The notes: generated by a model not told the origin, from the sequence alone. DNA of 64,000 bases from an uncultured Pelagibacteraceae bacterium (GCA_902589505.1 CACITE010000002.1:35740-99739); one strand, 5' to 3'; counted from the stretch's first letter, positions 7,013 to 39,297 are shown. Program-made: numbers and translations.

Positions 7013-7029
7013 GTTTGATAAGAGTTATT

Positions 7030-8508: not shown

Positions 8509-8509
8509 A

Positions 8510-12628: not shown

Positions 12629-13395
12629 GCCTATTTAATTCATGCATATATTCGGGTTTTGTTACCCATAGAAGATTTAAACCTAAAAGACATTTTTTTT
12701 CCTACAAAACTTTTTCTTTGTTTATTGATTTAAATGAGATTGAAAACTTAGGTAAAAAAATAAATTTTTTTTCATATAACAGATTTAATATTTTAAGTTT
12801 CTATGATGTTGATCACGGGCCCAGAGATGGAAGCACCTTGATTGCGTGGGTAAAGAGTAGACTGGCTGATGCTAAAATAAATATTGGATCAGGAACTATT
12901 AAGTTACTTTGTTATCCGCGATTTTTTGGATACGTGTTCAACCCTTTAAGTATTTTTTATTGTTATGATGATAATTTAAAATTAAAGGCAATTCTTTATG
13001 AAGTAAAAAATACCTTTAATGAGCAACACACCTATGTATTTTCTGCATCATCATCTTCTAATTTAATTTTACATAAATGTGATAAAAAATTTTATGTTTC
13101 GCCATTTATGGAAATGAAAACTTTTTACAACTTTAGATTGTTAAATCCTGGAAAAATTTTAAATGTTTTTATAAAACAGAAAGACAGCGAAGGCACCTTA
13201 CTCACTGCATGCCAAGTTGGAAAAAGGGTAGAAATGACTAATAAAAATTTGTTATTTCAATTTTTAAAACATCCGCTCATGTCATTCAAAGTTATCCTGG
13301 CGATACATTTTGAAGCATTAAGATTATGGATTAAAGGAGTTAAACTTGTAAAGAGAAAAATAAAAATAAAGAATAATTTATCGATTGAAAATTAA
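12625..13395 (+). CDS. DUF1365-family protein
   Basis: G.V.H.R..P..H.F.Y N-terminus typical of DUF1365. Overlaps the upstream gene by 4 nt. Confidence 0.75.
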   Translation: MSLFNSCIYSGFVTHRRFKPKRHFFSYKTFSLFIDLNEIENLGKKINFFSYNRFNILSFYDVDHGPRDGSTLIAWVKSRLADAKINIGSGTIKLLCYPRFFGYVFNPLSIFYCYDDNLKLKAILYEVKNTFNEQHTYVFSASSSSNLILHKCDKKFYVSPFMEMKTFYNFRLLNPGKILNVFIKQKDSEGTLLTACQVGKRVEMTNKNLLFQFLKHPLMSFKVILAIHFEALRLWIKGVKLVKRKIKIKNNLSIEN

Positions 13396-14582
13396 TGAAA
13401 AAAATATTGAACCATATTTCAGATCTTTTTGTTTTTTGGAATTTAAAAAAAATTTATAATGGGTATCTAAATCTAATAGATTCAAAAGGAAATGAATATT
13501 TTTTTGGAAATAAGGAAAGTCTATTAAAAGCTCATATAAAAATTAACGATCCAAGTTTTTGTTACAAAATTTTGAGAAGGGGAAGTTCCGGATTAGGAGA
13601 AAGCTACATAAATAATGAATTTGAAACAACAAACTTAACCACCTTAATAGAGTTAGCTGCAAAAAATATTACCACAACCTATAAATTTTCTGGATTTTTT
13701 GAGTTTTCATTTTTAAGAAATTTTTTAAATAGAAATATATTTAGTAATACAAAAAAGAGAAGTCAAAAAAATATATCCCTGCATTATGATTTAGGAAATG
13801 ATTTTTTTTCTACTTGGCTAGACAGAACTCACACTTATTCTTGTGGAATATTTAAATCATCTAAAGAAACTTTAGAACAGGCACAAATAAATAAATACAA
13901 TCAGTTAATAAATATGGTTAAGCCACGTAAGGGAGATAGAATTTTAGAAATAGGATGCGGGTGGGGAGGTTTCGCTGAACACCTTGCAAAAAATTATGAT
14001 ATTAAATTAGATTGTATTACTATTTCAAAAAAACAATTTTTATTTACCAAAGAAAGAATTAGAAAAGCAAAACTGGTACACAAAGTAAATGTTAAAATGC
14101 TGGATTATAGAGAATTAAATAATAAATATGACATTATAGTTTCTATTGAAATGATCGAAGCTGTTGGCGAAAAATATTTAAATAAATATTTTAATGTTAT
14201 TAAAGAAAATTTATTTCCAGGAGGAAGAGCGGCCATTCAAGCGATTATTATTAAAGATGAGCTTTACAGCAGATACAGAATGAAAGAAGATTTTATACAA
14301 AAATATATTTTTCCAGGTGGATTTTTGCCTTCTCTAAAACATTTAAGTAAATTATCCGAAAGCTCAGGATTGAAAATTGATAGATATCATTTATATGGAT
14401 CACATTATTCAAACACTTTGCAAAAATGGAGAGAAAGTTTTTTAAATTCTTGGGATTTAATTTCAAGACAAGGTTTTAACTCAAGCTTTAAAAAAATGTG
14501 GGATTTTTATTTTTCTTATTGTGATGCTGGTTTTAAGTCAAAAAATATAGATTTAATCCAGTTTTCTTTATGTAATAAATAA
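13395..14582 (+). CDS. cyclopropane-fatty-acyl-phospholipid synthase-family SAM methyltransferase
   Basis: HYDLGNDFF, ILEIGCGWGG and IFPGG.LPS motifs of the CFA-synthase family. Confidence 0.85.
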   Translation: MKKILNHISDLFVFWNLKKIYNGYLNLIDSKGNEYFFGNKESLLKAHIKINDPSFCYKILRRGSSGLGESYINNEFETTNLTTLIELAAKNITTTYKFSGFFEFSFLRNFLNRNIFSNTKKRSQKNISLHYDLGNDFFSTWLDRTHTYSCGIFKSSKETLEQAQINKYNQLINMVKPRKGDRILEIGCGWGGFAEHLAKNYDIKLDCITISKKQFLFTKERIRKAKLVHKVNVKMLDYRELNNKYDIIVSIEMIEAVGEKYLNKYFNVIKENLFPGGRAAIQAIIIKDELYSRYRMKEDFIQKYIFPGGFLPSLKHLSKLSESSGLKIDRYHLYGSHYSNTLQKWRESFLNSWDLISRQGFNSSFKKMWDFYFSYCDAGFKSKNIDLIQFSLCNK

Positions 14583-19353: not shown

Positions 19354-22134
19354 TTAGGCTTTTAATACTTCGGCTTGATCTTTTTCGGCTACAACTTCAG
19401 TTTTAAATTGATTTGATATTTTTTGAACTTCGACAGCTGATACTTTATATTCAGCACACATTGTTTCTTCATCTTTTCCGTGGCCGGTTACCATATTGAC
19501 CATGTGTTCAGGAAAATGGAAAGTAGTAAAGACTATACCTTCTTTCACTTTTTCTGTAACTTCAACTTTTAAAGAGACTTCACCTCTTCCTGAATAAAGT
19601 CTAGCAACATCACCTGTGTTTAGCTGTCTGTGTTTTGCATCTTTAGGATTAATTAATAAAAAGTCTTCATCAACAATTTTAATATTTTTGGTTCTTCTAG
19701 TCATTGTTGCCGCGTTGTAATGTTGTAGAACTCTACTTGTAGTTAATATTAAAGGGTAATCTTTTTTGTTTTTCTCTAGTTCACTGCTTTCTTTAAAGTC
19801 AAAATATTTAATTCTACCTTTTCCTAATTTAAATTCTTTTTGATGTAAAATTTTTGTGTCGGTTCCATCTTCTTTAACTGGCCATTGCAATCCTAATTTT
19901 CCTAGTCTTTCTCTTGTTATTCCTTTAAAGAAAGGAACTACATCTGCAATTTCTGCCAAGACTTGATCAGCATCATATGTTGGTTGATTATATCCAAGCT
20001 TTTGCATCATGTCTGTAACTATTACTCCATCGGGTTTTGTTCCCGGAAGAGGTTTTGCAGCTCTGTTAACCCTTTGAACTCTTCTCTCAGTATTTGTAAA
20101 TGTACCATCTTTTTCTAAGAAAGTTGTTCCTGGTAGTACCACGTCAGCATGTTTAGCAGTTTCGCTTAAAAATATTTCTTGAACCACTAATAGATCTAAT
20201 GCATTCATTGCTTTAGCGACATGAGCACTATTGGGATCAGTTTGAACAACATCCTCACCGATAATCCATACAGCTTTTACTTCTTTGTTAATTGCTGCAT
20301 CAAAAATTTGTGGAATTTTTAAACCAGCTTTTGTTGGATGAACGACCCCATATTTTTCTGTATAAAAATTTTGAATTTTTTCATCTGCAACTGGAAAATA
20401 TCCTGCACCTTGATGTGGTTGACAACCCATATCAGCTGCACCTTGGACATTATTTTGGCCTCGCAATGGATTAACTCCAACACCTTTTCTTCCTATATTA
20501 CCTGTTATCATAGCAAGGTCGGCAATTAGCATTACTGTTTTTTGAACCTTGCTCATGTTCAGTCACTCCAAGACCATGAAACTCCATTGAATTTCCTGCG
20601 GTAGCGTATGCAATAGCAGCTTCTTTAACTTGATGTTTATCAACACCAGCAACCTTAGCTAGTTGGTCAATGTCTAATTTTTTAATTCCCTTAAGAAAGT
20701 TTTCAAAGCCTTCTGTTCTGTTCAAAATAAAATCTTCCTTTTGTAACTTAGATTCTATAATGAAATATAACATCATGTTTAGAACCGCCACGTTGGTGCC
20801 AGGTCTTAATCTAATATGATAGTCCGCCATTCTTGCAAGTTCAGTTGTTACTGGGTCTAAAACTATTAGCTTTTTACCTTTCATTACTTGTTGTTTAATT
20901 TTTGCACCAGTAACTGGATGAGCGTTAGTTGGATTTGCCCCAATAACCAAAAACAAATCTGCATGATAAATGTCTTCTGTGGAGTTTGTAGCTGCACCAG
21001 TACCATATGTTTGTTGTAATCCCCAAGCAGTTGGTGAATGGCAAATTCTTGCGCAACAATCTATATTATTTGTTCCTATAACAGCTCTAATCATTTTTTT
21101 GGAAAACATAATTTTCTTCATTTGTACATCTTGCAGAAGAAATACCTGCAACTGCATCTGGACCATTTTCTTTAACTATTTTTTGTAATTTGTTTTTAAT
21201 ATAATCATAAGCTTCATCCCAAGAAGCTTTTTCAAACTTACCATTTCTTTTTATTAAAGGACTTTTCAATCTATCTGGATGATCATAAAAACCAAAAGCA
21301 TATCTACCTTTTAAACAAGTATGTCCTGCATTAACCTCAGTTTCTTTTGGAGTATCAATAGAAACTACTTTACCATTTTTTACTGACGCTTCTAAGTTAC
21401 AGCCAACTCCACAATAGGAACATGTGGTTCTAACTTTTTCATCATAGTTAGCTGATTTAGATGCAAAAACATCTGATATGGCATCAGTTGGACAAGTGTG
21501 TGCACAAGCGCCACAAGATACACAAGATGAGTCACCAAAAAGCATGTCGTTATCAGTTGTAATTTTTTGACTCAAAACCTCTTCCACTCATTGTTAAAAC
21601 AAAAGAACCTTGAATTTCATCACATGCTCTTACACAACGTCCACAATTGATACAGTTATCTAAATTCATTCGCATATATGCATGCGATGTATCTTTTGGG
21701 GTTCCTTTATTTTGTTTAGGTTTATTGTAACGGTGTTCGTTTATTCCTAAATCATTAGCTACTGTTTGTAATTCGCAATTATTATTTACTTCACAAGTTG
21801 AGCATGTCATAGGGTGATCAGTAAGAACAAGTTCAACAATATTTTTTCTTAAATTTTCTAAATCTTTATTATTGGTAATAATATAAGAACCTTCGGTTAC
21901 AGGAGTATGACATGACGCTACTGTTTTTGTAGGTCCATCTTTTTTTAGAGCCACATCCACTGAGCAGACTCTGCATGCTCCATAAGGAGCTAAATTGGGA
22001 TCATCACATAAACTTGGAACTTTATCTTTACCTACGTGTTCACGGACAAATTTTAATACAGAAGTATGTTCAGATTTAATCTGATGTGCAACTCCATCTA
22101 TATATGCAATTTTATGACTTTTTCCGTTTTTCAT
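19354..22134 (-). pseudogene. fdhA: NAD-type formate dehydrogenase alpha subunit (FdsA/FdhF-like, Cys-type) split into four ORFs by three +1 frameshifts
   Basis: Four consecutive ORFs give 2Fe-2S and 4Fe-4S domains, then the molybdopterin domain (TNEENYVFQK|MIRAVIGTNNIDCCARICHSPT, GLGVTEHEQGSK|TVMLIADLAMITGNIGRKGVGVNPLRGQNNVQG). Breaks are at + strand T-runs 21563-21568, 21094-21100 and 20538-20543. Removing one base at each gives about 925 aa. Confidence 0.9.
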
Positions 22135-22141
22135 AAATCCC

Positions 22142-23377
22142 CTAAGCGCTCTGATTTATATCATCTTTAAATTCATGGGTAAAATATTTTAGTATGTTGC
22201 TTATAGGCACTGGAATCGCTCCACATAGGGCGCACAAACAACCTTTTTTCATGGTTACAAGCAATTCATTTAAAAGTTTTATTGGTATTTTGTTTGATTT
22301 ATTTAATGCTTGATCAAACATTTCTTTACCTCGATAAGAACCTAGCCTTCCAGGAAAACACTTTCCACAAGATTCATCGGATGAAAATTTGAATAAATGA
22401 TGAATATACTTAACCATACTAAATGATTCTGGGATACTTACTACACTTCCGTGTCCAAGCATAAAGCCGGCTTTAGTAAACTCTTGGAAATCTAAATTGA
22501 GTTTTTCCACTTCTTTAATTGGAATAACGCCACCCAACGGACCACCAACTTGAAGAGCTTTTACGGGTTGGACAAATCCTTCACCAATTTCATTAATTAT
22601 TTTTTTCATCGGTGTTCCCATGTCAATTTCATAAACACCAGGTTTTTTAAATAAACTATCTAAGCAAACAAGCTTGGTTCCAGCAGATTTAGCATTTCCT
22701 ACAGAAGAAAAAGTTTTAGCTCCAAATTTTAATATACAAGGTATAGCGGCTAACGTTTCAACATTATTCACAACAGTAGGCTTTTTATACAAACCTTCTA
22801 CTACTGGAAAAGGAGGTCTTACATCAACCTCCGCTCTTCTTCCTTCAATTGAAGCTATCAAAGCAGATTCTTCTCCACAAATATATGCTCCTTGACCAAT
22901 GCAAATTGTCATGTCACAAGAAAAGTTAGTACCTAAAATATTTTTTCCTAAAAGGTTTGCTTTTTTAAGCTCGTTGATAGCTCCATTAATAATCTCTATA
23001 GATTTTGGATATTCCCCTCTTATATATAAAACTCCTTCATCGCTTCCAATAATATATGCACAAACTAACATGCCAAATATTACTTTCAGTGGTTGTTCTT
23101 CTAAAAGATATCTATCTGAGTAAGCACCAGAATCTCCTTCATCAGCATTACAAACAACATATTTTTTTTCGACTTTTTGTTGGCTACAAAGATTCCATTT
23201 CATGCCCGTAGGAAACCCTGCTCCGCCTCTGCCACATAAATTAGATTCTGTAACAGTTTTAAGGGTTTCCTTTTTATCTTTTTTTAAAACATTAGAAACT
23301 AATTCCTTAAACTGATCAATTGAAGATAAATCATCGCCCATAAGTATAGTTTTTGTCGCAAAACTTTTGGAATACAT
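22142..23377 (-). CDS. fdsB: formate dehydrogenase beta subunit (NuoF-like, NAD/FMN-binding)
   Basis: GRGGAGFPTGMKW, GEESALI and ESCGKC motifs. Confidence 0.85.
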   Translation of the reverse strand: MYSKSFATKTILMGDDLSSIDQFKELVSNVLKKDKKETLKTVTESNLCGRGGAGFPTGMKWNLCSQQKVEKKYVVCNADEGDSGAYSDRYLLEEQPLKVIFGMLVCAYIIGSDEGVLYIRGEYPKSIEIINGAINELKKANLLGKNILGTNFSCDMTICIGQGAYICGEESALIASIEGRRAEVDVRPPFPVVEGLYKKPTVVNNVETLAAIPCILKFGAKTFSSVGNAKSAGTKLVCLDSLFKKPGVYEIDMGTPMKKIINEIGEGFVQPVKALQVGGPLGGVIPIKEVEKLNLDFQEFTKAGFMLGHGSVVSIPESFSMVKYIHHLFKFSSDESCGKCFPGRLGSYRGKEMFDQALNKSNKIPIKLLNELLVTMKKGCLCALCGAIPVPISNILKYFTHEFKDDINQSA

Positions 23378-23801
23378 TTTTTTTTGAATTTATTTTTTTA
23401 CCTTTAATAATTTCGTCAATTTGATCAATATCATTTCCTGCATAATTGTGACCATTATAGTGAAACGCATTAGTTTCATAGCAATGACCCAAACAAAACA
23501 TCATTCCAATATTATCTTCTCCTAATTTTTCAGATAATTTTTTCCTAATCTTACCTTGTGTTCCTGCGCACATGCATGCACTGCCATTGCATATCCATGC
23601 TTTTTTTTCTTTATGCTCAGGTCTTAAAAATTCATAAAAACTTTCAGCTCCATGAATAGTTGACATACCAACATGGTATTCTTCAGCGAGTTGTCTTATT
23701 TCTTTACCATTTTTACTTTTGCTAGTCGCGTCAACCATACGCTTAAAAAGATTGTCTTTAAGTCCTTTTCTTCCAGAGAGCTTACTTATATTTTTTGACA
23801 T
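23331..23801 (-). CDS. NuoE-like [2Fe-2S] thioredoxin-fold subunit or domain (FdsG-like)
   Basis: C-x4-C (CNGSAC) and C-x3-C (CLGHC) NuoE-type ligand pattern. The 3' end overlaps fdsB by 47 nt across an A9 run. Confidence 0.75.
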   Translation of the reverse strand: MSKNISKLSGRKGLKDNLFKRMVDATSKSKNGKEIRQLAEEYHVGMSTIHGAESFYEFLRPEHKEKKAWICNGSACMCAGTQGKIRKKLSEKLGEDNIGMMFCLGHCYETNAFHYNGHNYAGNDIDQIDEIIKGKKINSKKNVFQKFCDKNYTYGR

Positions 23802-23807
23802 AATTTT

Positions 23808-24644
23808 CTATTTTAAAATTCTACTTTCACCACAATATATATTAAAGCTATCAGATTTTACAAAACCTATTAATGTCATATCGAAGCGCTTTGCCAAATC
23901 AATAGCAAGACTTGTTGGCGCACCCACACCCATTAGAAAACCAATATTTGCCATAAGAGCTTTTTGAACTAATTCAAAGCTTAAACGACCAGAGCAGGCT
24001 ATAAATTGATTTTTTGTATCAAATAAAGAATTTTTAAAACAATAACCTATGACTTTATCCAATGCGTTATGACGACCAACATCTTCTTTAATCACCAAGG
24101 GTTTGCCCTCTTTGTTAAATAAAGCGCTAGCATGTATTCCTCCAGTTTTTGAAAATTCTGATTGATTTTCACTTAAAATATTTGGAATTTTAGTAATTAA
24201 TGAGTTTTTTATTTTTGGAACATTTTTGTTTATTTTTGTTTTACAAATAATTTCTAAAGAATCCATTGACGTTTTACCACAAACGCCACAACTAGAATTT
24301 GTTAAGAAATTTCTTCTCAAGTGCTTTACATCAAGATTTTCTCCATTTTTTAGAGTGGCTCTAATTTTATTTTGTAATTCAAATTTTCCAACTTTTTCAC
24401 CTAAAAATTCAACTTTTTCTATCTCAGAAATTTTTTGAATTATTCCTTCACAAAATAATAATCCAACTAATAAATCTTCATCATTTTTTGGTGTTCTCAT
24501 CGTTATTGAAAAAGAATTGTCTATCCACTTATTTTCTTTTTTATACCGAACAGCCATTTCAAGTGGCTCTTCAATTGAAACCAAATCTTCAATATTTGAA
24601 GATTTATTTTTTTTATATTTAACAGTTTTATATTTTGAATTCAT
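23808..24644 (-). CDS. fdhD: formate dehydrogenase accessory sulfurtransferase FdhD
   Basis: SSCGVCG catalytic loop, GGIHASALF and GRHNALDKVIG. Confidence 0.9.
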   Translation of the reverse strand: MNSKYKTVKYKKNKSSNIEDLVSIEEPLEMAVRYKKENKWIDNSFSITMRTPKNDEDLLVGLLFCEGIIQKISEIEKVEFLGEKVGKFELQNKIRATLKNGENLDVKHLRRNFLTNSSCGVCGKTSMDSLEIICKTKINKNVPKIKNSLITKIPNILSENQSEFSKTGGIHASALFNKEGKPLVIKEDVGRHNALDKVIGYCFKNSLFDTKNQFIACSGRLSFELVQKALMANIGFLMGVGAPTSLAIDLAKRFDMTLIGFVKSDSFNIYCGESRILK

Positions 24645-24645
24645 A

Positions 24646-25155
24646 TTAAAACCACTGAAGTGGGTAGTTTTTTTTTAATATAAGTCTATTATAAATTACC
24701 CCTCCAATTATAATAGTAACCGCACCAACAAATATTGGAAATATTAAAAATTGATATGATTCTTGAGCTAACATTACTAAAATTGTATTTCCTCCAGCAG
24801 GTGGATGTATAATTTTAAACACCATCATAAGCATGACAGTGATGCCTATGGCTATACCTAGGGTTAAAAAGAATACTGTTCTATCTTGAGTGATTTTAAA
24901 AAAAGTTACAAATATAATTCCAACAAGCGCAGCAAGAAGATGACCAAATAATACATTTTTTGGTTGAGCATATTCATTTTCTGGAGATATAAAAACAATA
25001 ACGACAGAAGAACCAAAAGAAGCTGTTAACCAAAGTCCGTAAATAGTTCCAGCCAAAAAAGATTGATAAGTTATATATGAGATAACCGCAATTGTAACTC
25101 CCGCCCCTATTCCAGCAAGTAGTGGCGGCCAGCAAATTATTTTTTTAAATTTCAT
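24646..25155 (-). CDS. HPP-family membrane protein
   Basis: Signature IIHPPAGG within a 4-5 TM protein. Its stop lies 1 nt before the fdhD start. Confidence 0.85.
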   Translation of the reverse strand: MKFKKIICWPPLLAGIGAGVTIAVISYITYQSFLAGTIYGLWLTASFGSSVVIVFISPENEYAQPKNVLFGHLLAALVGIIFVTFFKITQDRTVFFLTLGIAIGITVMLMMVFKIIHPPAGGNTILVMLAQESYQFLIFPIFVGAVTIIIGGVIYNRLILKKNYPLQWF

Positions 25156-25160
25156 AAAGA

Positions 25161-25563
25161 TTATTTACTTAACGCGTCAAGCGTTGTGTTAATAGGCAGC
25201 AACAAACATTCCTTTCTTGATATATTATTTTTCGTCATTATCTTATCAAATTCTTTCCATTCTTTATCAAAAGAATTTGCATTTTTTTTCAAAGCAATTT
25301 TTTACTTGTTCTGCGAACTTTTTAACTTTTTCTACTGATTTATTTTGAGCATTTCTTGAAAGCAAACTAACTGACGCTTGACAATATATGCATGATTCAC
25401 ATTCATATTTGAAATTTGTAATTTTCTCATTTTTAACAATTAAATAAATTTTCATTTCATCTCCACAAATTGAATTTTTTAACTTTGAGAAGTGTGTACA
25501 ATTGTTCAGCACACCATGATTTTCTGTATTTGACGCAATTTTAATGATTTCTTTATCTATCAT
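25161..25563 (-). pseudogene. NifU-N/IscU-like Fe-S scaffold protein interrupted by a +1 frameshift
   Basis: The N-terminal 98-aa ORF has CGD...C..C-type motifs (SICGDEM, CESCIYCQAS). The C-terminal 35 codons continue in another frame (..NSFDKEWKEFDKIMTKNNISRKECLLLPINTTLDALSK*), ending 5 nt before the HPP start. The break is most simply at T8 25282-25289. Confidence 0.7.
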
Positions 25564-25604
25564 TTGAACTTTATTGTATTTTCTTTAAAATTATAATTTG
25601 TTTT

Positions 25605-26228
25605 ATGAACGAACACAATATACTGGGAGCTATCTTAGCAGGCGGGAAATCCAAAAGAATGGGTGATGATAAACTCTTTCTTGAACTTAATAATAAAAAA
25701 CTTATTCAATACTCAATTGATAAAGTGAAAAAATATTTAAAAGATTTAATTATAGTTACTAATATAGACGATAATTTTTTTAGAAAAAATAATTTAACAA
25801 CTGTTAAGGATTGTATCGAAGGTCAACTCGGACCTTTAGTGGGAATACTTACTGCTATGCAATGGGCAAAAAAAAATTCAAATAAATATTCTTGGGTGGC
25901 AACTTTTCCATGCGACACTCCTTTTTTTCCAGAAAGTATCATTAAAAGTTTTATTAAAGAGTCAGAAAAAAAAGACTCTCTAATACTTTGTGCAAGTTCT
26001 CATGGACGCAAGCATAATATTTTTGGTTTGTGGTCCTTAGAACTTTATGACAAACTCAAGGATGATTTAATAAACAACAAGGTAAGGAAAGTCCAGGATT
26101 GGACAGAAAAAAATAAAATAAAAAATTTAGAATTTAAATTTGAGGATTATGATCCATTTTTTAACATTAACACCAAAGAGGATTTAGAATTTGCAAAAAA
26201 GTTAAGCACAAAGATTACAAATGAGTAA
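25605..26228 (+). CDS. mobA: molybdenum cofactor guanylyltransferase
   Basis: N-terminal ILAGGKSKRMG nucleotidyl-transferase motif and GPL.G motif. Confidence 0.85.
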   Translation: MNEHNILGAILAGGKSKRMGDDKLFLELNNKKLIQYSIDKVKKYLKDLIIVTNIDDNFFRKNNLTTVKDCIEGQLGPLVGILTAMQWAKKNSNKYSWVATFPCDTPFFPESIIKSFIKESEKKDSLILCASSHGRKHNIFGLWSLELYDKLKDDLINNKVRKVQDWTEKNKIKNLEFKFEDYDPFFNINTKEDLEFAKKLSTKITNE

Positions 26229-26757
26229 AAGTAATAAAATAGAAGATTCGTTGAACAAAATATTTTCGACATCAAGTTATAAAATGATAGATGTAAGTAG
26301 TAAAGAAGTTACTCATCGCAAAGCTCTTGCTGTAGGAGAAATAATCTTAAATGCTGAAATAATAAAAATGATTAAGAATAAAAAAATGCCAAAAGGTGAT
26401 CCATTAGCTATAGCAGAAGTTTCTGGAATTAATGGTGTAAAAAAAACAAGCGAACTAATACCACTTTGTCATCCATTGTCTTTAGATCATATTTCTATTC
26501 ATTCAGAAATTGATGAATCTAAAAACTTAATAACCGTTTATTGTTTAGTGTCTGCAAATTCAAAAACAGGCGTGGAAATGGAAGCTCTATCGGGGGTTAA
26601 TTCTGCATTGCTTGCCATTTATGACCTTTCAAAAATTGTTGAGCCAAATTTAAAAATTACTAATACAAGATTGCTTTTTAAATCTGGTGGAAAGAAAGGT
26701 TTATGGATTAATCCGAATGGAATACCAGAAAAAATAAAAAAAGTTATAAATCCTTAA
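26221..26757 (+). CDS. moaC: cyclic pyranopterin monophosphate synthase MoaC
   Basis: KGDPLAIAEVSGI and LIPLCHPL motifs. Confidence 0.9.
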   Translation: MSKSNKIEDSLNKIFSTSSYKMIDVSSKEVTHRKALAVGEIILNAEIIKMIKNKKMPKGDPLAIAEVSGINGVKKTSELIPLCHPLSLDHISIHSEIDESKNLITVYCLVSANSKTGVEMEALSGVNSALLAIYDLSKIVEPNLKITNTRLLFKSGGKKGLWINPNGIPEKIKKVINP

Positions 26758-26758
26758 A

Positions 26759-28000
26759 ATGATTTCATATAAAAAAGCTATAAGTTTAATTAATAAAAAT
26801 TCAATTACATTGCCTTCAAAAAAGATTTCTATTGATAAAGCTTTATATAAAATATGTGCTAAGGATATTTTGTCACCATCAAAATATCCATCATTTAATA
26901 ATTCTGCATTCGATGGTTTTGCTTTGGTTTCCAGAGAAACTAAAGGATTAAATTCAAAAAAAACCAAAAAATTTAGAATATTAAAAACTATTGCCGCAGG
27001 CGATAATCCTAAAATAAATAAATACAAAAAAAATTCTACTGTAGAAATCATGACAGGAGCTTTGATGCCAAAACAATTTGACACAATTTTACCAATAGAA
27101 AAAGTTAAATATTTTCCGTCCAATAAAAAACCTACGCATATTATTTTAGATAGAAGTTTAAAAAAATTTGAATATGTAAGATTTGGTGGAGAAGATTATA
27201 AACCAGGAAATCTTGTGGTGAAAAAAGGCGAACAAATCCACGCTAATCACCTTATTACTTTGGCGGCACTTGGAATTAAGAAAATATTAGTAAAAAAAAT
27301 ACCTAAAATAATTTTTTTTGGAACAGGTAATGAAATTATTGATTACAGAAAAAAAAATATACCTTTATGGAAAGTTAGAAATTCAAATAATCTTTATTTT
27401 TCTGCTTTTGGGAAAGGTTTAAATCTAGAAGTTGTTGATGGCGGTGTTATTAAGGACAATGAACCATACAAACTTAAAAAAGCTTTAAAAAAAACAATAA
27501 AATCAGATATTGATTTATTTGTAACTTCCGGAGCTATCTCAGCTGGTAAATTTGATTTTATACCAAAATTTATAAAACAATTTGGATTTCAAAATAAATT
27601 TAAAGGAGCTAAGATTAAGCCTGGACGTCCAATCATGTTATCGAAATTTAAAAAAAAAATATTTTTTGGCCTTCCTGGCAACCCCATATCTATGGTTGTG
27701 GGTTTCAGATTTTTTATTTATCCCTTAATCCGAAATATGTTAGGCATGAATAAGGAAAAAACATTCAAAGCCAAATTGATAAACAAATATTATAAACGAA
27801 AACACTTTACCAATTTTTTAAGATGCTATTTGACAGTTACCAAAAAAGGATCTTGCGAGCTGAAAATATTGAAAGGCCAGCAATCTAATAAATTAAAAGC
27901 ATTAACAGAAGCAAATTGCTGGGGGGTATTCGAAAGTGGCAAAGCAAAATTTAAAGCTGGTGATTTTGTTGAATGTTTGCCTTTAATTCCTAGTAGCTAA
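26759..28000 (+). CDS. moeA: molybdopterin molybdenumtransferase MoeA
   Basis: PSFNNSAFDGFAL, SGAISAGKFDF and GLPGNPIS motifs. Confidence 0.9.
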   Translation: MISYKKAISLINKNSITLPSKKISIDKALYKICAKDILSPSKYPSFNNSAFDGFALVSRETKGLNSKKTKKFRILKTIAAGDNPKINKYKKNSTVEIMTGALMPKQFDTILPIEKVKYFPSNKKPTHIILDRSLKKFEYVRFGGEDYKPGNLVVKKGEQIHANHLITLAALGIKKILVKKIPKIIFFGTGNEIIDYRKKNIPLWKVRNSNNLYFSAFGKGLNLEVVDGGVIKDNEPYKLKKALKKTIKSDIDLFVTSGAISAGKFDFIPKFIKQFGFQNKFKGAKIKPGRPIMLSKFKKKIFFGLPGNPISMVVGFRFFIYPLIRNMLGMNKEKTFKAKLINKYYKRKHFTNFLRCYLTVTKKGSCELKILKGQQSNKLKALTEANCWGVFESGKAKFKAGDFVECLPLIPSS

Positions 28001-28028
28001 AAAAATATTTTTATGATTTAATTTGTTT

Positions 28029-29018
28029 ATGTTAATCGATTCATTTGAACGAAAAATTTCATATTTAAGAGTTTCAGTTACGGATCGTTGTGATTTCAGA
28101 TGTACTTATTGTATGTCCGAGGATATGAAATTTTTGCCCAAAAAAGACGTTTTGTCTTTAGAAGAATTAGATAGACTTTGTAATGCCTTTATCGATCTTG
28201 GCGTAAAAAAAATAAGAATTACGGGAGGAGAACCTCTTGTTAGAAAAAATATAATTGAATTATTTAAAAATATTGGAAAAAAATTAGGGAAAGGATTAGA
28301 AGAATTAACACTTACCACAAATGGATCTCAACTTGATCGATATGTTAAAGACTTGCTTAATGCGGGTGTTAGAAGAATTAATATTTCATTAGATTCTTTA
28401 AATAAAAAAAAATTTAAAAATATAACTCGAAACGGTAATTTTGATAAAGTTATTAAAGGAATAATGGCAGCAAAAAAAGCTGGATTAAAAATAAAAATAA
28501 ATACTGTAGCTTTAAAAGGAATTAATGATGATGAAATTTTAAAACTAGTAAACTGGTGTGGTGAAAATAAATTTTCATTAACCTTTATAGAGGTAATGCC
28601 AATGGGAGAAATTGGAGAAAAAAGAATAGATCAATATATGCCATTAACTGAAGTTAGAAATTTAATACAAAAAAAATATAGTATTAGCGAAGATTCATTC
28701 AGAACCGCTGGACCAGCGAGATATGTACATTGTCATGAAACAAATCAAAAAATCGGTTTTATTACCCCGCATACTCATAATTTTTGCGAACTTTGCAATA
28801 GAGTCAGAATTACGTGTACCGGAGAAATGTATATGTGCTTGGGTCAACAAGATAAAGCAGATTTAAAAACACCTTTAAGAAAAAGTGAAAACAATCGGTT
28901 GTTAAAAGATGTAATACACGAAGCTATTTCGAGAAAACCAAAAGGACATGATTTTATTATTGATAGAAAAGAAAATGAAAATTTTGTTCCCAGAAATATG
29001 AACGTAACAGGAGGTTGA
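28029..29018 (+). CDS. moaA: GTP 3',8-cyclase MoaA (radical SAM)
   Basis: [18 protein letters not shown] radical-SAM cluster motif and C-terminal C..C...C plus GG tail. ATG at 28029 preferred over the TTG at 28023. Confidence 0.9.
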
Positions 29019-29019
29019 T

Positions 29020-29286
29020 GTGGAAATTGAGTTAAGGCTTTATGGATCATCTAAAATATTAAGCGATAAAGATGCGTTAAAAATTGAATTACCAAATAAC
29101 TCAAATATCGAACAACTAAGAGAAATATTATCTAAAATTATTTCTAAAAAACATTCTAAGAGTAACTTAAAAAATTTGTCAAAAACAGCAGCTTTCTTTA
29201 GTGACAAGAATGAAGTTGTAAATGACAACTACAGACTAAAAGACAAAGAATCTATTTCGATTATTCCTCCTATTGGCGGCGGTTAA
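29020..29286 (+). CDS. moaD: molybdopterin synthase sulfur-carrier subunit MoaD
   Basis: 88 aa ending in IGGG (ThiS/MoaD-type C-terminal Gly-Gly). GTG start; sits between moaA and moaE. Confidence 0.75.
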   Translation: MEIELRLYGSSKILSDKDALKIELPNNSNIEQLREILSKIISKKHSKSNLKNLSKTAAFFSDKNEVVNDNYRLKDKESISIIPPIGGG

Positions 29287-29747
29287 TGACCTTACATATA
29301 ACTCTTGTTAAAATAGAGGAAACAAAGATATCCTCAGACAAAGCAAAAAAATTTATTGCTTCGGAAAAAAATGGAGCAGAATGTATTTTTGTTGGAAAAG
29401 TTAGAAATGAAAATGCTGGAAAAAAGGTTACAGGCGTAACTTATGATGCTCACGATCAAGCTGTTATTAAATCTTTTCAATCAATTTGTAATAATGCAAA
29501 AGACAAATTTGATAAAAATGCTAAAATTTTTTTAGAGCATGTTAAAGGATATGCTCCTGTAGGTGAAATAAGCATCCTAATAGCAGTTGGGTCAGGGCAT
29601 AGGGATGAAGCTTTTAAAATTTGTAGATATATTCTTGAAGAAGTAAAACATGGATCTCCTATATGGAAAAAGGAACATTATACAGATGGGAAAGAAGAAT
29701 GGCTTCCAGGTCATTCTTTAAGACCAAAGAAAGAAATTAAATTATGA
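29286..29747 (+). CDS. moaE: molybdopterin synthase catalytic subunit MoaE
   Basis: GAECIFVGKVRN, HR.EAF and PIWKKE motifs. Confidence 0.85.
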   Translation: MTLHITLVKIEETKISSDKAKKFIASEKNGAECIFVGKVRNENAGKKVTGVTYDAHDQAVIKSFQSICNNAKDKFDKNAKIFLEHVKGYAPVGEISILIAVGSGHRDEAFKICRYILEEVKHGSPIWKKEHYTDGKEEWLPGHSLRPKKEIKL

Positions 29748-30646
29748 CAAAAAATAAAACTAACTCAGCAATTTTGATAGTTTTATTTGCAGGAATATTA
29801 TGGTCGTTTGGAGCTTTGGTTGTTAGATATATTGAAGATGCGCGCTCAATACCTTGGCAATATCTTTTTTTTAGGGGTGTAACTATTTTTTTAATTTTAA
29901 ATATTTATTTATTTTTCAAAGAAGGAAAATATTTTATTGACAATTATAAAAAAATTAATTTGTCAGTTGTTATAGGTGGATTAGGTTTTGCTACAGCTTT
30001 TATGGGTTTTATTTGGTCGATTACTCACACTTCGGCAGCCGTTACTCTTTTGATGTTAGCAGCGATGCCATTTATGACAGCAATTCTAGGATATATTTTT
30101 CTTAAGGAAAAAGTTTCTTTAAAAACTTTGATAGCAATTATTTTAGCAGCAGCTGGAATTATTTTTATGGCTTTTAACAACAGCCAAATAGGAACTTTAT
30201 TTGGTTTATTAGCTGGCCTCTTATCCGCTTTAGGTTTTTCTGTCGGCTCTGTTTCTTTAAGATGGAATAAAAGAACACCAACTTTTACAACTGTTTCATT
30301 AGCTGGATTATTTTGTGCAATTATTTCTTTTGCGATGATAATTATTAACGATACAAATGTTTTTACTACTTTTAGAAATTCTTCCCTTTCAGCATTGCAT
30401 GGAACTTTAGTATGTTCTGGCTTAATTCTCTATTCAATCGGTTCTAAAAATTTACCTGCTGCAGATCTTACTTTGTTGTCTTTGACAGAGGTTTTGGGTG
30501 GTATTTTCTGGGTTTGGTTGCCAATTTTAGGCATTAATGAGATTCCAACGACCAACACAATCATAGGGGGTTTTATCTTAACCTTTGCAATTCTTTTTTA
30601 TAGTTTAAACATTAAGAAAAATAGGCGTTTTATAGGATTAAGTTAA
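29744..30646 (+). CDS. DMT/EamA-family transporter
   Basis: Ten hydrophobic helices. Overlaps the moaE stop by 4 nt. Confidence 0.8.
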   Translation: MTKNKTNSAILIVLFAGILWSFGALVVRYIEDARSIPWQYLFFRGVTIFLILNIYLFFKEGKYFIDNYKKINLSVVIGGLGFATAFMGFIWSITHTSAAVTLLMLAAMPFMTAILGYIFLKEKVSLKTLIAIILAAAGIIFMAFNNSQIGTLFGLLAGLLSALGFSVGSVSLRWNKRTPTFTTVSLAGLFCAIISFAMIIINDTNVFTTFRNSSLSALHGTLVCSGLILYSIGSKNLPAADLTLLSLTEVLGGIFWVWLPILGINEIPTTNTIIGGFILTFAILFYSLNIKKNRRFIGLS

Positions 30647-30653
30647 AAATAAT

Positions 30654-30881
30654 TTAACTAGGATTTTTTTTTAAAAATTCAATATAATTGACAACTTCTT
30701 GAAACTTTGCATCTTCAATATCCTTATAACTTTTTTGAAATTTTGATTTTACACATATTGCAACATGCGCATAAGGATTTCTGCCTTTTGGATGGTTAGG
30801 ATGATCAGGCAATTGTCCTTTTAAATAATCGCCAGCTTCCTGTATGATTTTCCAGAGTTTACTTGTGTTTTCTTTGTTCAC
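30654..30881 (-). CDS. hypothetical small protein (75 aa)
   Basis: Only an ORF with a plausible ATG; no recognisable motif. Confidence 0.45.
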   Translation of the reverse strand: MNKENTSKLWKIIQEAGDYLKGQLPDHPNHPKGRNPYAHVAICVKSKFQKSYKDIEDAKFQEVVNYIEFLKKNPS

Positions 30882-30960
30882 TCTTCCTCTTTTCTTGTTT
30901 TATCTCTTCTGCACCCAGTCTGTACCCAGTTTAAGAGATGTTTTTAGTGAATTTCTATCC

Positions 30961-31956
30961 TTACTTATTATTCAAATTAACACTTATCAAACAAATTATT
31001 TCAAACATTATGGAAGCTGCGACCATTGAAGTAATATTATTTGGATTATCTTTGGTTGGCATTAAACAAGCAACATCTCCTCCTATTATATTTTTACCTT
31101 TAAGGCTTTGAATTAATTTTCTTACTTCATCAATATTAAAACCCTTAAAAGCTGGTTCGAGATTTGCTGTACCCGGAGCAACTGACACATCTAAACAATC
31201 CAAATCAAAAGTTACATAAACAGGTTTATCATCTAATCTATCCAAAATCATTTTTGAAGATTTTTCATGACCAAATTTTTTATATTCATCCATAGTTATT
31301 ACTTGGTACCCAATGTCATAACTTGCTTGCAGCCAATCCAAAGTTCTTGGATTTCCTCTAATACCAATTTGGGTGCTCGTTTTTGGATCAACATTTCCTT
31401 GTTTAACAAGATAAGAAGCCCAATGAGCTGCTGATTTTTTTGCCCCTAAAAAATGATCTAATTTTTCGTAACAATCAGTATGCGCATCAAAATGAACAAG
31501 ATTAACTTTTTGTCCTTTAGTGAGTTTGGAATTTTTTTTTGCTAAGCTTTGTAAAATTCCACCTGTTATTGAATGATCTCCGCCAATAGAAACAACTGGT
31601 TTTTGAGCTTCCTCTATATGATCATAAAAACTTGAAATTCTTTCTATACATTTTTCATTATCATTTGCTTCTGGAAAAGGCACATCTCCCAGATCGTGAA
31701 TTTTGTTTTGTTTCCATGGGTCAATGCCAAATTCAAGATGAGATCTTTTCAACATAGCTGAAATATTTCTTACAGCTCTTGGGCCAAGATGCTGATCTCT
31801 TTCTGTAGTTCCATTTCCGGTGCTATGCGGCACTCCTACTAAAGCAATGTCACAGTTTTTGGGATCGGGATCATTTTTACATCTAAATAAGGTTGGTATA
31901 CCCCACCAATATAGAGTTTCCATCATTAACTGATCTTCATCTGAAAATTTTTTCAT
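30961..31956 (-). CDS. ureohydrolase, agmatinase/guanidino-acid hydrolase family
   Basis: Mn-ligand motifs GGDHSIT, FDAHTD and TFDLDCLD. Confidence 0.85.
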   Translation of the reverse strand: MKKFSDEDQLMMETLYWWGIPTLFRCKNDPDPKNCDIALVGVPHSTGNGTTERDQHLGPRAVRNISAMLKRSHLEFGIDPWKQNKIHDLGDVPFPEANDNEKCIERISSFYDHIEEAQKPVVSIGGDHSITGGILQSLAKKNSKLTKGQKVNLVHFDAHTDCYEKLDHFLGAKKSAAHWASYLVKQGNVDPKTSTQIGIRGNPRTLDWLQASYDIGYQVITMDEYKKFGHEKSSKMILDRLDDKPVYVTFDLDCLDVSVAPGTANLEPAFKGFNIDEVRKLIQSLKGKNIIGGDVACLMPTKDNPNNITSMVAASIMFEIICLISVNLNNK

Positions 31957-31995
31957 ATTCCATAAAAAATTATTTTTTTTGTAAATTTACAATAT

Positions 31996-33772
31996 TTAAG
32001 AATCATTATTGTTAACTCTTTCAATGTTATTTAAAGTATCAATAGTTTTTGAAAATTTATAATTATTTTTTTGGTCAATTAATAGGGCTTTTTTACACGA
32101 AATATTGGTATTAATATTAATATAGTTTGCTAAATTAATTTTTTTATTCTTATCAATTAGCTCGTAATCAACATTTAATATTATTTCCTCCAGCGCGCCA
32201 TCATTACAATAAAGCTTTTTGATCACAAGGTTGTTATTATTAATAGATTCAGTTTGAATAATAATATTTTTTTTATCCTGCTGAATAAATATCTTTCCTG
32301 GCTCGTGAATGAAAAGTTTTAATAATAAATCGGCTTTATGATAAAAATTTTTTTCTGTAAAATAATATAAACCGGGTCCAAAATAATTATGGTGATCTAC
32401 AAAAAAATAATCTCCATATATTTTAGAATTTATTTTTTTTATCTGCTTTTCTCTTTTTTTAAAAAAGGAATCTAAAAAATCTTTTGATGATATTTTTAAA
32501 ACAGCGTTTCTATACTTCTTATAAAAATTGAGATTTATATCACCTTCCTGGTTATAAAAAATTTTGTACATATTATATTTAAAACCATGTGGGCATCTTA
32601 TGTTGTCTATTTCCGATTGTTCCTTTGTTAACCAGACACCATCTTTGACATTTTTTTTTATTATCGTGTAATTATTGTCTTCAAATCTTTTACAGCTCTT
32701 TGCTATCTCGAATGCTGAAGGACCACGCTGCCAAATAAGATTATTCCAATCATAATGCTTGCTATAATTTTGTATCAATCTATGTCCATCGAAAGGGATA
32801 GGTTCAAATTTGTTGATAGCGGGATTGTAATAGAATTTTAAATTTCCTAAAACTAGTGCGTGAAAATAATCATTAATGTCAGCTATTGCGTAAAACCATG
32901 CCCATTTGTCCATATCAAATATTTCATCTGAACTTATTTTATCATCAAAAAAATCTCTTAGCTTCTGGGAAGCTGTTTTACTTAATTCTATATTTTCTTG
33001 ATTTAACCAATATTTTTTATTGTAAACTTGAAGCTTTGCTTTTTTTATATCCGTGGAAAATTCATCGTGTATTGCAAGAATTGGTCCATTTTTTTCTTTT
33101 GTTTCTCTCCAAAAGAGGTTTTCCAAAACCTTCTTCAAAAACATATAGACCTTTGTTATTTCCATTTATTTTCAAATCGACAAATTCATATTTAAGTTTA
33201 ACAAGCCCCCCTTCACCAGCTAGTTCGTGAAAGATCCATTCATGAATATAATTTCTTGCTCTTGGTTTCATTAAAGAAAACTTTTTTGCACTAAGTATTC
33301 TATTTTCTTTTTTTAGATCAATTTTATAGGAAGAATATTTTTCTTCTTCAAAATGAATTTTTCTATCACCTTTTAAACGCAGATCTGCTCTATAAGATTT
33401 GTTTTTATAATTTATTCTGCTGGAAACTTCCAAAAAATTATAGTGCATTCCACCACCTGCTTCTTTCGCTGCATTCTTTCTATCATTCTCTAATATAAGC
33501 ATGTTGTCAAAATTAATACTGATATTTAATTTAGGAATTTTATAAAATTGCCCCCTGAGAGAGTAAAACCCAATTTCAAAAATATTTAAATAATGGTTTA
33601 CCGAACTTTTATACAATCTATTTAAAAAGGGATCTTTATATTGATTCCAATATCCTGTGTTAAAAAACAACACCGATAAAAAAAATAATACTACAAGAGA
33701 TACAAAAAAGTAGATTTTTAAAAAAATATTAAAATAAGATCTTTCTTTATTCATAGTGCTAATTTTATACAC
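31996..33772 (-). pseudogene. CotH-like (kinase-fold) protein with N-terminal TM anchor, interrupted by a +1 frameshift
   Basis: Two overlapping ORFs. The join ...KINGNNKGLYVFEEGFGKPLLERNKRK|NGPILAIHDEF... is restored by removing one base from T7 at 33089-33095. The SYKIDL, L....D.S and ING...GLY pattern resembles the CotH family. Confidence 0.65.
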
Positions 33773-33851
33773 AATTGAAAAATTATAAAGAAGAAAAATT
33801 ATTTATAATTTCATTTTTGACACAAATTAACTTAAAAGAATTGAGTATGTT

Positions 33852-35142
33852 TTATTTATTTTCGGTGCTTGATATATCAGCTCCAGTTGTTGGGTCAAGT
33901 TCAATTCCTAACGGAGTAATATTTCTTGGCAATGGAGTAAATGTCGATTCAGGGTTATCTTTATAACTTCTTTTGGTTATTCTATACAATCCAAAAAAAC
34001 CAATGATTAAATGAAAAAATAATAAATGAATAAAAAAACCATTACTTCCAAATTTATTCATTATCAAGGAGCATAAAAAAGGACCACCCATTGCTCCCAT
34101 TCCAAATATGATTTGCATTCCTGCGCCTGCGGCTACGAATTTTTTCTTTAGATATATAATCGTTTATATAAGCAAGGTTCAGGGTAAACATTGGAACAGC
34201 CATTCCCGCATATAACGCAATATATATATAAAACATTATTTTATCTAATCCAACGCTTGTTGCTAAATACATATTTTCTAGAGAAGTTCCAGATGCAACA
34301 ATACACATAAAAGAAAAAAGTGAAGCGGCGAACGTACTAAAGATAATAATTACTCTTCGATCAGTTTTGTCAGAGTAGTAACCGATTGGCCACTGAAATA
34401 TTCCTCCAGAAATTGTAACTATAAACAACACTAAAGAAATTTCAAAGAGAGTAAAATTCATTGAAGCGACATATACAGCTCCCAAAGAAAATAATGCTGA
34501 GTGAATTAAACCAGTGCAAAACATACTGAACGTGGCTAATGGAGAAGTTTTATATAAACCTTTTATATCAATGTTTCCCAATTTTTTAAATTTAGGTGCT
34601 TTACGTTTCGTAAGTAAAATAGGAATTAGAGCTGAGGATAACAATAAAGAAATTAATATGAAAGGTTCATACTTTTCGGGACTGCTAAAGTTTAATAGAA
34701 GAGTACCCAAAGCTAACCCTATCAAAGTTATAAACATATAAATGGATAATAATTGACCACGTGTTCTATTATTGGCTCGATCATTTAACCAACTTTCCAT
34801 AACAATAAAAATTGCAACAATACTAAATCCTGTTATGAATCTTCCCAATGTCCAGACTATTGGATTTACAAAGACAGCATGAAGTAAAATACTTAGCGAA
34901 GCCATCGAGGCAAAAGCTGCAAAAACTCTTATATGACCAACTTTTCCTACGAACTTTGGAATCGAATTTGCTCCAGAAAAATAACCTATAAAGTATCCTG
35001 ACATTATTGCGCCAGTTGCAATAAAGTTAAATTCTTCAATTACAGATCTAACTCCAAGTAGATTGCCTTGAAATCCATGGGCGACCATAAGAATAAAGTA
35101 ACCTGTAAAAAGAGCCCATGAATTTTTAAGTATTTTAAACAT
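33852..35142 (-). pseudogene. MFS transporter interrupted by a +1 frameshift
   Basis: The 362-aa ORF carries helices 1-10. Removing one base from T6 at 34140-34145 gives ...YINDYISKEK|FVAAGAGMQIIFGMGAMGGPFLCSLIM... joined to the 88-aa ORF. Confidence 0.8.
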
Positions 35143-38148: not shown

Positions 38149-38169
38149 GAAAATCTATTTCAAACAAAA

Positions 38170-38232
38170 ACCGGGTATTTAACCGAATTGTGCACCTGAC
38201 AATCGTCAAAGCACTAAAAACGGAGGGTAAAA
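38170..38232 (+). promoter_or_regulatory. SAM-V-class riboswitch aptamer candidate overlapping the bhmt SD
   Basis: GTGC...AAAGCAC TAAAAA CGGAGG directly before the ATG. This stem plus A-rich tail plus SD arrangement is characteristic of SAM-II/SAM-V pseudoknot switches. Confidence 0.5.
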
Positions 38233-39297
38233 ATGAGTAGTAAGAAAAGAAATTTAATCGAAAGATTAAATTCAGGACCGGTGATTTGTGCAGAGGGTTT
38301 CCTTTTTGAAATAGAAAAAAGAGGATACATGAGTTCAGGAGAGTTTGTTCCCATGGTTTCTTTGGAGCATCCTGAAGCTTTAGAAAATCTTCATAGGGAT
38401 TTTCAACATGCGGGTTCCGATGTAGTTCAAGCATTTACTTATAATGGTCATCGTGAAAAAATGAAAGTTATTGGTAAAGAAGAACTATTAGAACCTCTTA
38501 ATAGAGCTGCTCTGAAAATTGCAAAAAAAATTGCAGACAATCCAATTGGGAAAGAGCCTAATTTAATGGCTGGAAATATTTCAAATTCAAATATTTGGAA
38601 TGATAAAGACCCCAAAACACATAAAGAAGTTGAAAAAATGTTTTCAGAAATGGTTGGCTGGGCTGTAGACGAAGGAGCAGATATGTTGATCGGCGAAACT
38701 TTTTACTATGCTGAAGAAGCATATACTGCCTTAAAGGTTATGAAACAAACTAATCTTCCAAGTGTTATTACAATAGCACCCATGGGGGAGAATATTATGA
38801 GAGACGGTTTTTCTATAGTTGATACTTGCAAAGAACTAGAACAACGAGGTGGTGATGTAGTAGGAATGAATTGTTTTAGAGGACCAAATACGATGATGCC
38901 TTATTTAAAAGAGATTAGAAAGGTTTTAAAATGTCATGTGGCTGCTTTGCCAGTAACTTATAGAACAACAGAAAAGCATCCCACTTTTTTTAATTTACCG
39001 GATAATAATGGTTGCGAATGTCATACTCCTCATAAGACACCATTTCCTACAGCATTAGATCCTATGCAATGCAATAGATATGAAATTGGAAAATTTGCAA
39101 AGGAATCTTTTGATCTAGGTATTAAATATCTAGGTGTATGTTGCGGAGCAAACCCCATGTTGATTAGAGAAGTAGCCGAGGCCGTTGGATTAAAAGTGCC
39201 AGCAAGCAAATATCATGAAGATATGTCGACGCATATGCTATTTGGAACAGATAAAAGAATTCCAAAACATCAAAAGGACTATCAAGATAAAGCTTGA
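38233..39297 (+). CDS. bhmt: betaine-homocysteine S-methyltransferase (homocysteine S-methyltransferase domain)
   Basis: GPVICAEGFLFE N-terminus, GADML.GETF, and GVCCG Zn-site motif near the C-terminus. Confidence 0.85.
   Translation: MSSKKRNLIERLNSGPVICAEGFLFEIEKRGYMSSGEFVPMVSLEHPEALENLHRDFQHAGSDVVQAFTYNGHREKMKVIGKEELLEPLNRAALKIAKKIADNPIGKEPNLMAGNISNSNIWNDKDPKTHKEVEKMFSEMVGWAVDEGADMLIGETFYYAEEAYTALKVMKQTNLPSVITIAPMGENIMRDGFSIVDTCKELEQRGGDVVGMNCFRGPNTMMPYLKEIRKVLKCHVAALPVTYRTTEKHPTFFNLPDNNGCECHTPHKTPFPTALDPMQCNRYEIGKFAKESFDLGIKYLGVCCGANPMLIREVAEAVGLKVPASKYHEDMSTHMLFGTDKRIPKHQKDYQDKA

Follow-up and report, generated by a model that had tools for sequence, protein, structure and literature searches.

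Genes whose reading frame breaks off and continues in another frame are known from several quite different settings, and each offers a comparison for the locus considered here: five minus-strand genes, among them that for the formate dehydrogenase alpha subunit (fdhA), which are interrupted at seven sense-strand A-runs in a draft contig from an uncultured Pelagibacteraceae (SAR11) bacterium. The 64,000-nucleotide stretch that was analysed (GCA_902589505.1, CACITE010000002.1:35740-99739), hereafter the window, is about 30% GC and densely packed with genes. One of the settings is technical. Draft assemblies with homopolymer errors, as obtained by pyrosequencing, Ion Torrent or nanopore sequencing or in unpolished or low-depth patches, contain one-base changes in A/T-runs that split otherwise perfect genes; these changes go in one direction, occur in patches along the contig and are not found when relatives are assembled independently. 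The window resembles such drafts in each of these respects and differs from them in having all its changes on one strand. Genes split by artefactual homopolymer indels are also known from Oxford Nanopore Technologies (ONT) assemblies of Pelagibacter, where they make up 1.8% of genes, on average 26 in a genome, and are concentrated in assemblies of lower depth (bioRxiv 10.64898/2026.04.03.716430); the seven in 13.6 kb of the window are far denser than that.

Other settings are biological. The poly(A) frameshifts of Buchnera and Blochmannia share with the window an AT-rich, reduced genome and an indel in a sense-strand poly(A) tract of a gene that is otherwise intact and constrained. The endosymbiont tracts are about A9-A11 or longer, however, whereas those of the window are A6-A9, and a single indel per gene is found there, against up to three in a gene of the window. 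One Blochmannia example has 11 A, and the Blochmannia frameshifts are conserved across populations and species (PMC3017870). None of the shifts in the window is shared with relatives, and the extra A that they carry would have to be deleted from the transcript. SAR11, moreover, is free-living and has a very large population, so drift-driven fixation is not expected in it. Contingency loci, in which the reading frame is switched by homopolymers that gain or lose bases, much as it is here, commonly concern surface or restriction-system genes, whereas those of the window are metabolic; the window also differs in its short tracts, in having several tracts in one gene and in the lack of run-length polymorphism among relatives. 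In programmed ribosomal frameshifting (+1 in prfB, -1 in dnaX), as in the window, two overlapping frames encode one protein family, but the shift sites of the window are not conserved and every orthologue is in frame.

A preliminary description of this DNA had recognised six clear interruptions and a possible seventh, each to be mended by taking one A out of the sense-strand run. All seven plus-strand T-runs lie where that description placed them (Table 1), and removal of one T from each restores uninterrupted open reading frames (ORFs) for FdhA (925 amino acids, aa), FdsG-FdsB (552 aa), a NifU/SufU-like protein (133 aa), a CotH-family protein (591 aa) and an MFS transporter (429 aa). The lesion is of one type throughout, a +1 in a T6-T9 run in seven cases out of seven, with one indel in four of the genes and three in fdhA. 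Throughout the 6.4 kb of affected coding sequence the repaired ORFs contain no stop codon, further frameshift or larger indel. Pfam domains extend across the junctions of the repaired proteins, as does the Molybdopterin domain of FdhA (residues 288-706) over the second and third sites, and the junction peptides that had been predicted (GFESKITTDND, YVFQKMIRAV, EQGSKTVMLI, ERNKRKNGPIL and SKEKFVAAGAG) agree both with the translations obtained here and with the relatives.

The seventh site, at the junction of fdsG and fdsB, had been the doubtful one. The 411-aa FdsB frame begins with an ATG directly after the A-run, from which a separate FdsB could still start. In SAR11, however, FdsG (2Fe-2S thioredoxin-like) and FdsB (NuoF-like) form one fused protein, which gives a single full-length alignment in 58 of 64 SAR11 loci, and fused proteins of 552 aa and 507 aa share one 90% cluster. 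The junction, lying within what is one gene in SAR11, is therefore a true seventh shift.

The assignments of the repaired proteins hold up well for most of the genes. FdhA has the Pfam domains Fer2/Fer4, Molybdop_Fe4S4, Molybdopterin and Molydop_binding, is 96-98% identical to its SAR11 orthologues, and has a close homologue (P0001) that scores above the cut-off of the NCBIfam model TIGR01591 (Fdh-alpha). It is the most conserved protein of the neighbourhood, with 97.7% identity to that of AG-439-E07. The repaired FdsG-FdsB contains 2Fe-2S_thioredx, Complex1_51K and NADH_4Fe-4S. The NifU/SufU-like protein, a presumed Fe-S scaffold, matches Pfam NifU_N (E=4e-11), its match to the NCBIfam SufU model being under that model's cut-off. 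The transporter belongs to Pfam MFS_1 and is found intact, at 429 aa and 93% identity, on three JGI contigs that have A5 where the window has A6. These domain and family matches bear out the earlier names fdhA, NifU-like and MFS. The name CotH-like draws its support indirectly, from 4 of 13 marine homologues that match Pfam CotH (PF08757, best E=1e-13); the 591-aa protein of the window itself has no Pfam or NCBIfam match, and searching the PDB with a profile yielded nothing of use. The motifs Y-I-H-E-W-I-F and D-G-H-R are conserved in its family, which also has a hydrophobic segment at the N terminus.

For four of the genes the comparison drew on 52 to 80 loci from SAR11 or marine metagenomes, and for the MFS gene on 4 loci together with three metagenome contigs. 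Proteins of the window are closest to those of Pelagibacteraceae (SAR11) single-cell and metagenome-assembled genomes. The best loci in the genome collection are AG-439-E07 (L001), AG-414-E02 (L003), AG-464-B15 (L010) and AG-414-G15 (L060), which are 95-97% identical to the window in FdsB and 84-90% identical in DNA; none in that collection is closer. Not one of the seven shifts occurs in any relative, among 52 full-length FdhA, 58 FdsGB, 55 NifU-like, 80 CotH-family and 7 MFS sequences. Single tblastn alignments pass across the junction in 80 of 80 loci for the 591-aa protein, 55 of 55 for the NifU-like protein, 70 of 80 for FdsGB and four of the five loci with a match for the MFS transporter. 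At the level of the run itself, blastn with 60 bases on each side of the site found one base fewer in every relative, or an interrupted run one base shorter. The SAR11 genome loci cover five of the sites, and there each relative is one base shorter; at all seven sites the relatives are in frame.

Nor do the relatives point to other sites. Between 11.5 and 30.9 kb, comparison with the four closest loci found five uncompensated indels inside genes whose length is not a multiple of three. These are the five reported sites of that interval, and at each of them the window has the longer sequence. When all 160 loci were scanned, an extra base in the window was found without contradiction in 56, 58, 61, about 12, about 10, 17 and 4 loci (sites in coordinate order), and no site beyond the seven had such unanimous support. 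The affected genes in 64 other SAR11 loci contain one homopolymer shift in total (A8 to A7 in the fdsGB gene of L013), which puts the density of homopolymer shifts in the window roughly 100-fold above theirs. In the protein collection, the window's own proteins, broken ORFs included, come from a single NCBI contig of 111,242 bp. All told, no examined relative has the extra bases, which are confined to this assembly, and the genes that carry them look fully constrained.

The strength of that constraint can be seen in the ratio of nonsynonymous to synonymous divergence (dN/dS). For FdhA it is 0.015-0.020 against L001 and L003, and the four segments between the shifts each have a dN of 0.005-0.014 with a dS of 0.5-0.9. 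For FdsGB the ratio is 0.04-0.05. In the MFS transporter it is 0.073 for the segment ahead of the shift and 0.068 for the one behind it. The window lineage has 3 private amino-acid changes in 915 columns of FdhA and 2 in 488 of FdsGB, no more than sister lineages have. Judged by their sequences, the broken genes look fully functional and constrained apart from the extra bases. With dN/dS so low and no excess of private changes, it is unlikely that any of these genes has been dead for an appreciable time, and three successive lesions of the same kind in a gene already dead would be odd. Ongoing decay, one of three explanations that had been put forward for this locus, is contradicted by these values, by the equal dN/dS on both sides of the MFS shift and by the lack of any other lesion.

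Another of those explanations, miscalled homopolymers where the assembly has poor support, is the one that the evidence favours. Since conservation of the genes is otherwise perfect and none of the breaks recurs in a relative, sequencing or assembly error is the most likely cause, and the seven interruptions are probably one-base A/T homopolymer overcalls in poorly supported patches of a draft assembly rather than a property of the organism. Such overcalls would have arisen during amplification, sequencing, assembly or polishing of the draft contig, and would be concentrated in one or two patches, at about 20.5-25.3 kb and 33.1-34.1 kb. The patches themselves could stem from uneven single-cell amplification, from low-depth stretches of a long-read assembly, or from stretches of a hybrid assembly left unpolished by short reads. 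The true runs would then most likely be A5, A6 and A5 in fdhA, A8 in fdsGB, A7 in the NifU-like gene, A6 in the CotH-family gene and A5 in the MFS gene, and the true sequence would encode five intact proteins.

Table 1. Interrupted genes, their seven A-run sites and the intact molybdenum cofactor (Moco) gene block, in window coordinates
Feature	Position	Strand	Run (plus strand; sense)	Remarks
fdhA (formate dehydrogenase alpha subunit)	19354..22134	-		Four ORFs of 193, 166, 222 and 400 aa through three one-base insertions
fdhA site 1	21563..21568	-	T6; A6	Relatives have A5 or an interrupted run one base shorter; extra base of the window seen against 61 loci
fdhA site 2	21094..21100	-	T7; A7	Relatives have A6; extra base seen against 58 loci
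fdhA site 3	20538..20543	-	T6; A6	Relatives have A5; extra base seen against 56 loci
fdsG-fdsB (single fused 552-aa gene in SAR11)	22142..23801	-		156-aa FdsG-like ORF with an out-of-frame tail, and 411-aa FdsB
fdsG/fdsB site	23377..23385	-	T9; A9	Closest relatives have A8
NifU/SufU-like Fe-S scaffold gene (133 aa repaired)	25161..25563	-		Split into ORFs of 98 and 43 aa
NifU-like site	25282..25289	-	T8; A8	Relatives one base shorter
CotH-family gene, membrane-anchored protein (591 aa repaired)	31996..33772	-		Split into ORFs of 236 and 389 aa
CotH-family site	33089..33095	-	T7; A7	Relatives in frame, reading ...ERNKRRNGP...; extra base seen against 17 loci
MFS transporter gene (429 aa repaired)	33852..35142	-		Split into ORFs of 362 and 88 aa
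MFS site	34140..34145	-	T6; A6	L162-L164 and L013 have A5
Moco gene block (mobA-like, moaC, moeA, moaA, moaD/E-like, others)	25605..30646	+		Intact, contiguous ORFs; internal control

The distribution of the sites fits patches of this kind. Random draws of seven sites among the 507 A/T runs of at least 6 bases give a span of 13.6 kb or less in 0.07% of cases (p ~7e-4). The shifts are absent from the other 50 kb of the window, and five of them lie in 20.5-25.3 kb and two in 33.1-34.1 kb. So tight a cluster would not come from a genome-wide process, and patchy coverage or polishing would produce it. The preliminary description had held that clustering and uniform polarity together speak against random mutation. 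That argument is right, but the polarity is weaker than it had been made out to be: with run length taken into account, T-runs would be struck seven times out of seven with p ~0.012 if the whole of 20.5-34.1 kb was at risk and p ~0.07 if only the two patches were.

The restriction to minus-strand genes is largely trivial, since the sites fall in blocks that have minus-strand genes only; in 20.5-25.3 kb, where every gene is on that strand, there are 31 T-runs and 2 A-runs. Between the two patches lies the Moco block, which was used as an internal control. It contains 43 sense-strand A-runs of at least 6 bases, and no uncompensated indel was found in it against L001, L003, L010 or L060, in agreement with the earlier remark that the Moco genes lying between the broken ones carry in-frame A-runs (of A8-A10, as seen here). 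The probability that all the shifts lie in minus-strand genes is about 0.25 if plus-strand T-runs are the target and about 0.03 if sense-strand A-runs are. A model of sense-strand targets is thus about 9-fold worse, the 43 A-runs of the plus-strand Moco genes being untouched. Strand polarity was accordingly rejected as the sign of a process acting relative to the genes, as the asymmetry is not significant for the two patches.

Run length has a modest effect. In the affected genes, the fractions of runs struck, by true length from A5 to A9, are 3 of 58, 2 of 31, 1 of 13, 1 of 6 and 0 of 4, and the chance of being struck rises about 1.9-fold with each added base.

Several points nevertheless weigh against a technical origin. 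The technical cause is something we infer rather than something shown. Low dN/dS is no help in separating an artefact from a very recent real mutation, with which it is equally compatible. The polarity toward T-runs over the whole span is not predicted by an error that is symmetric between strands, a difficulty that weakens if only the two patches were at risk. The related AG- single-cell genomes are Illumina-only, and if the same were true here, one-base overcalls at A5-A8 runs would be rare. Seven of them in 14 kb would then call for something out of the ordinary, for instance an early amplification product full of errors that came to dominate the locus.

In the likeliest alternative, the lesions are real, very recent and private to the sampled cell or strain. 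They would have been made in one error-prone and slippage-prone tract of synthesis along one strand, over about 14 kb; selection would have yet to purge them, and the genes would be dead in that individual. A single polymerase pass is indeed expected to leave a uniform +1, a one-strand polarity and a span of 13.6 kb, and lesions only generations old would leave dN/dS low and cause no other damage. Other assemblies, too, have isolated lesions in this operon, namely L013 (A8 to A7) and L161 (an in-frame TAA in FdhA). Against this, five unrelated functions would have been lost at once, and an undescribed process would be needed: we know of none described that lengthens homopolymers by +1 only, striking about 6% of the runs of at least 5 bases over 14 kb. 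Slippage during replication in vivo should, as we expect, favour the longest runs more strongly, yet none of the four T9 runs in the affected genes was struck and three runs of true length 5 were. Errors made in vitro, finally, leave an identical signature and are the commoner source. Recent real lesions are for these reasons an unlikely explanation of the interruptions. Taken more broadly, the proposition that the extra bases are genuinely present in the sampled SAR11 cell, as a strand-coordinated +1 "shower" over a tract of about 14 kb or, less likely, as frameshifts tolerated through slippage, strikes us as very unlikely.

The third of the earlier explanations has the frameshifts real and tolerated, full-length protein still being produced because the RNA polymerase, or the ribosome by +1, slips on the A-runs, as has been proposed for the poly(A) frameshifts of Buchnera and Blochmannia. 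Every shift does lie in a sense-strand A-run of an AT-rich, streamlined genome, and the strong constraint on the genes has been kept, as it has in frameshifted genes of Blochmannia (PMC3017870). The same Blochmannia cases are conserved, however, whereas the shifts of the window are absent from every relative. FdhA, moreover, would require three independent corrections, and at 30% per site, as reported for long endosymbiont tracts, less than 3% of the product would be full length. Bacterial slippage is documented for runs of about 9 nucleotides or more (PMC5009743), and with lengths of 6, 7, 6, 8, 7, 6 and 9 the runs of the window fall short of that in six cases out of seven. An extra A calls for a deletion in the transcript, whereas transcription errors in A/T-runs mostly insert; the errors that delete bases are seldom associated with homopolymers, and in Buchnera no restoration of the frame was observed (PMC5574713). 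The 9-fold poorer fit of sense-strand A-runs as targets tells against slippage as well, as do the 43 plus-strand Moco runs, which stay in frame up to A10. Slippage-dependent expression consequently goes unsupported, and we regard it as highly improbable. That the A-runs are phase-variable contingency tracts, toggling the genes within the population, is hardly credible: all that speaks for it is that the lesions alter the length of simple repeats within genes, whereas the tracts of relatives are fixed in frame or interrupted by substitutions and show no length polymorphism, the true lengths are only 5-8, the positions within genes are arbitrary, the genes are of central-metabolism and housekeeping type, one of them would contain three such tracts, and the 14-kb clustering would be left unexplained.

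Further shifts were sought by changing every homopolymer of at least 4 bases by +1 or -1 and keeping those edits that fused two open stretches of at least 60 codons. Eight candidates, at 3502 (A7), 8495, 24668 (A9), 36059 (A6), 42265 (A11), 44656, 50591 and 53698, proved to be gene boundaries between complete, unrelated genes; the flanking genes have end-to-end Pfam matches, and the run length is common to relatives where it can be compared. Three indel sites from the comparison with relatives, at 22127 (10 loci), 24509 (15 loci) and 30096 (4 loci), were likewise set aside, as the four closest relatives have no indel there. The FdhD ORF is full length, and these sites are attributed to alignment noise with divergent loci and to N-terminal length variation. 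Relatives cover about 4-36 kb and 56-62 kb of the window only; elsewhere, 36-56 kb included, the finding of no shift therefore rests on the tiling of ORFs and on Pfam, and for the other ORFs of 0-3 kb and 36-56 kb the domain matches are mostly full length. Within that coverage, the edit scan, Pfam and the relatives gave no sign of a frameshift in plus-strand genes or beyond 20.5-34.1 kb, and the earlier statement that plus-strand genes and everything beyond 19.3-35.1 kb are free of such breaks is upheld.

Two of the rejected runs have features of their own. The A9 run at 24668-24676 on the minus strand lies 8 codons before the stop of an HPP-family gene, and a one-base deletion in it would fuse that gene to fdhD; comparison with the four closest relatives reveals no indel, which makes the run a genuine one that keeps the frame. 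The A11 run at 42265-42275 on the plus strand is the longest homopolymer of the window and lies within the last codons of an EamA-family gene. It lies 7 nucleotides before the stop and 9 nucleotides before the next gene, so an error in its length would escape notice.

Some of the relatives also have irregularities in or near this operon. In AG-464-I02 (L013:9755-9775), fdsGB has a -1 frameshift where an A8 run (HKEKKAW) reads A7. FdsG fragments of 83-93 aa occur on ENA contigs of 9-15 kb, in the same protein cluster as fdsGB, and from these short fragments it may be that this A8 run is broken repeatedly across assemblies. On a 13.7-kb metagenome contig (L161, JGI Ga0068481_1102229; positions 8190-8230), FdhA is split into 535 aa and 395 aa, and the changed Ser codon stands directly before the A-run of the third fdhA site. 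It was rejected as an independent case, the cause being an in-frame substitution of TCA to TAA and not an indel. The shared position is an ascertainment effect, because the contig was found through its 395-aa fragment, which represents the cluster of the window's fragment. AG-464-B15 has A9 where the window has CA7 (13765-13771), in the orthologue of the gene at 13395-14582, and this may be a frameshift in the AG-464-B15 assembly.

Two riboswitches were found elsewhere in the window, both on the plus strand. A glycine riboswitch at 6863-6950 (Rfam RF00504, 65 bits) lies upstream of an ORF at 7015-8124, which is followed by GcvH (8128-8508) and then by a 968-aa ORF (8471-11377). A SAM-V riboswitch at 38164-38228 (RF01826, 42 bits, just over the gathering score) stands directly upstream of a homocysteine S-methyltransferase-family gene (38233-39297) and overlaps a spurious 101-aa minus-strand ORF.

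If the extra bases are an artefact, they amount to a quality flag only, and the fdhA, fdsGB, NifU/SufU-like, CotH-family and MFS genes are to be treated as intact. The contig record should in that case not be taken as evidence for pseudogenes or for lost formate oxidation in SAR11. If, on the other hand, the bases are real, they would be the first sign in SAR11 of clustered, strand-coordinated homopolymer hypermutation or of slippage-dependent expression. SAR11 is a free-living lineage that has been reported to lack mismatch repair, and real bases would bear on how streamlined, AT-rich genomes handle their abundant A-runs.

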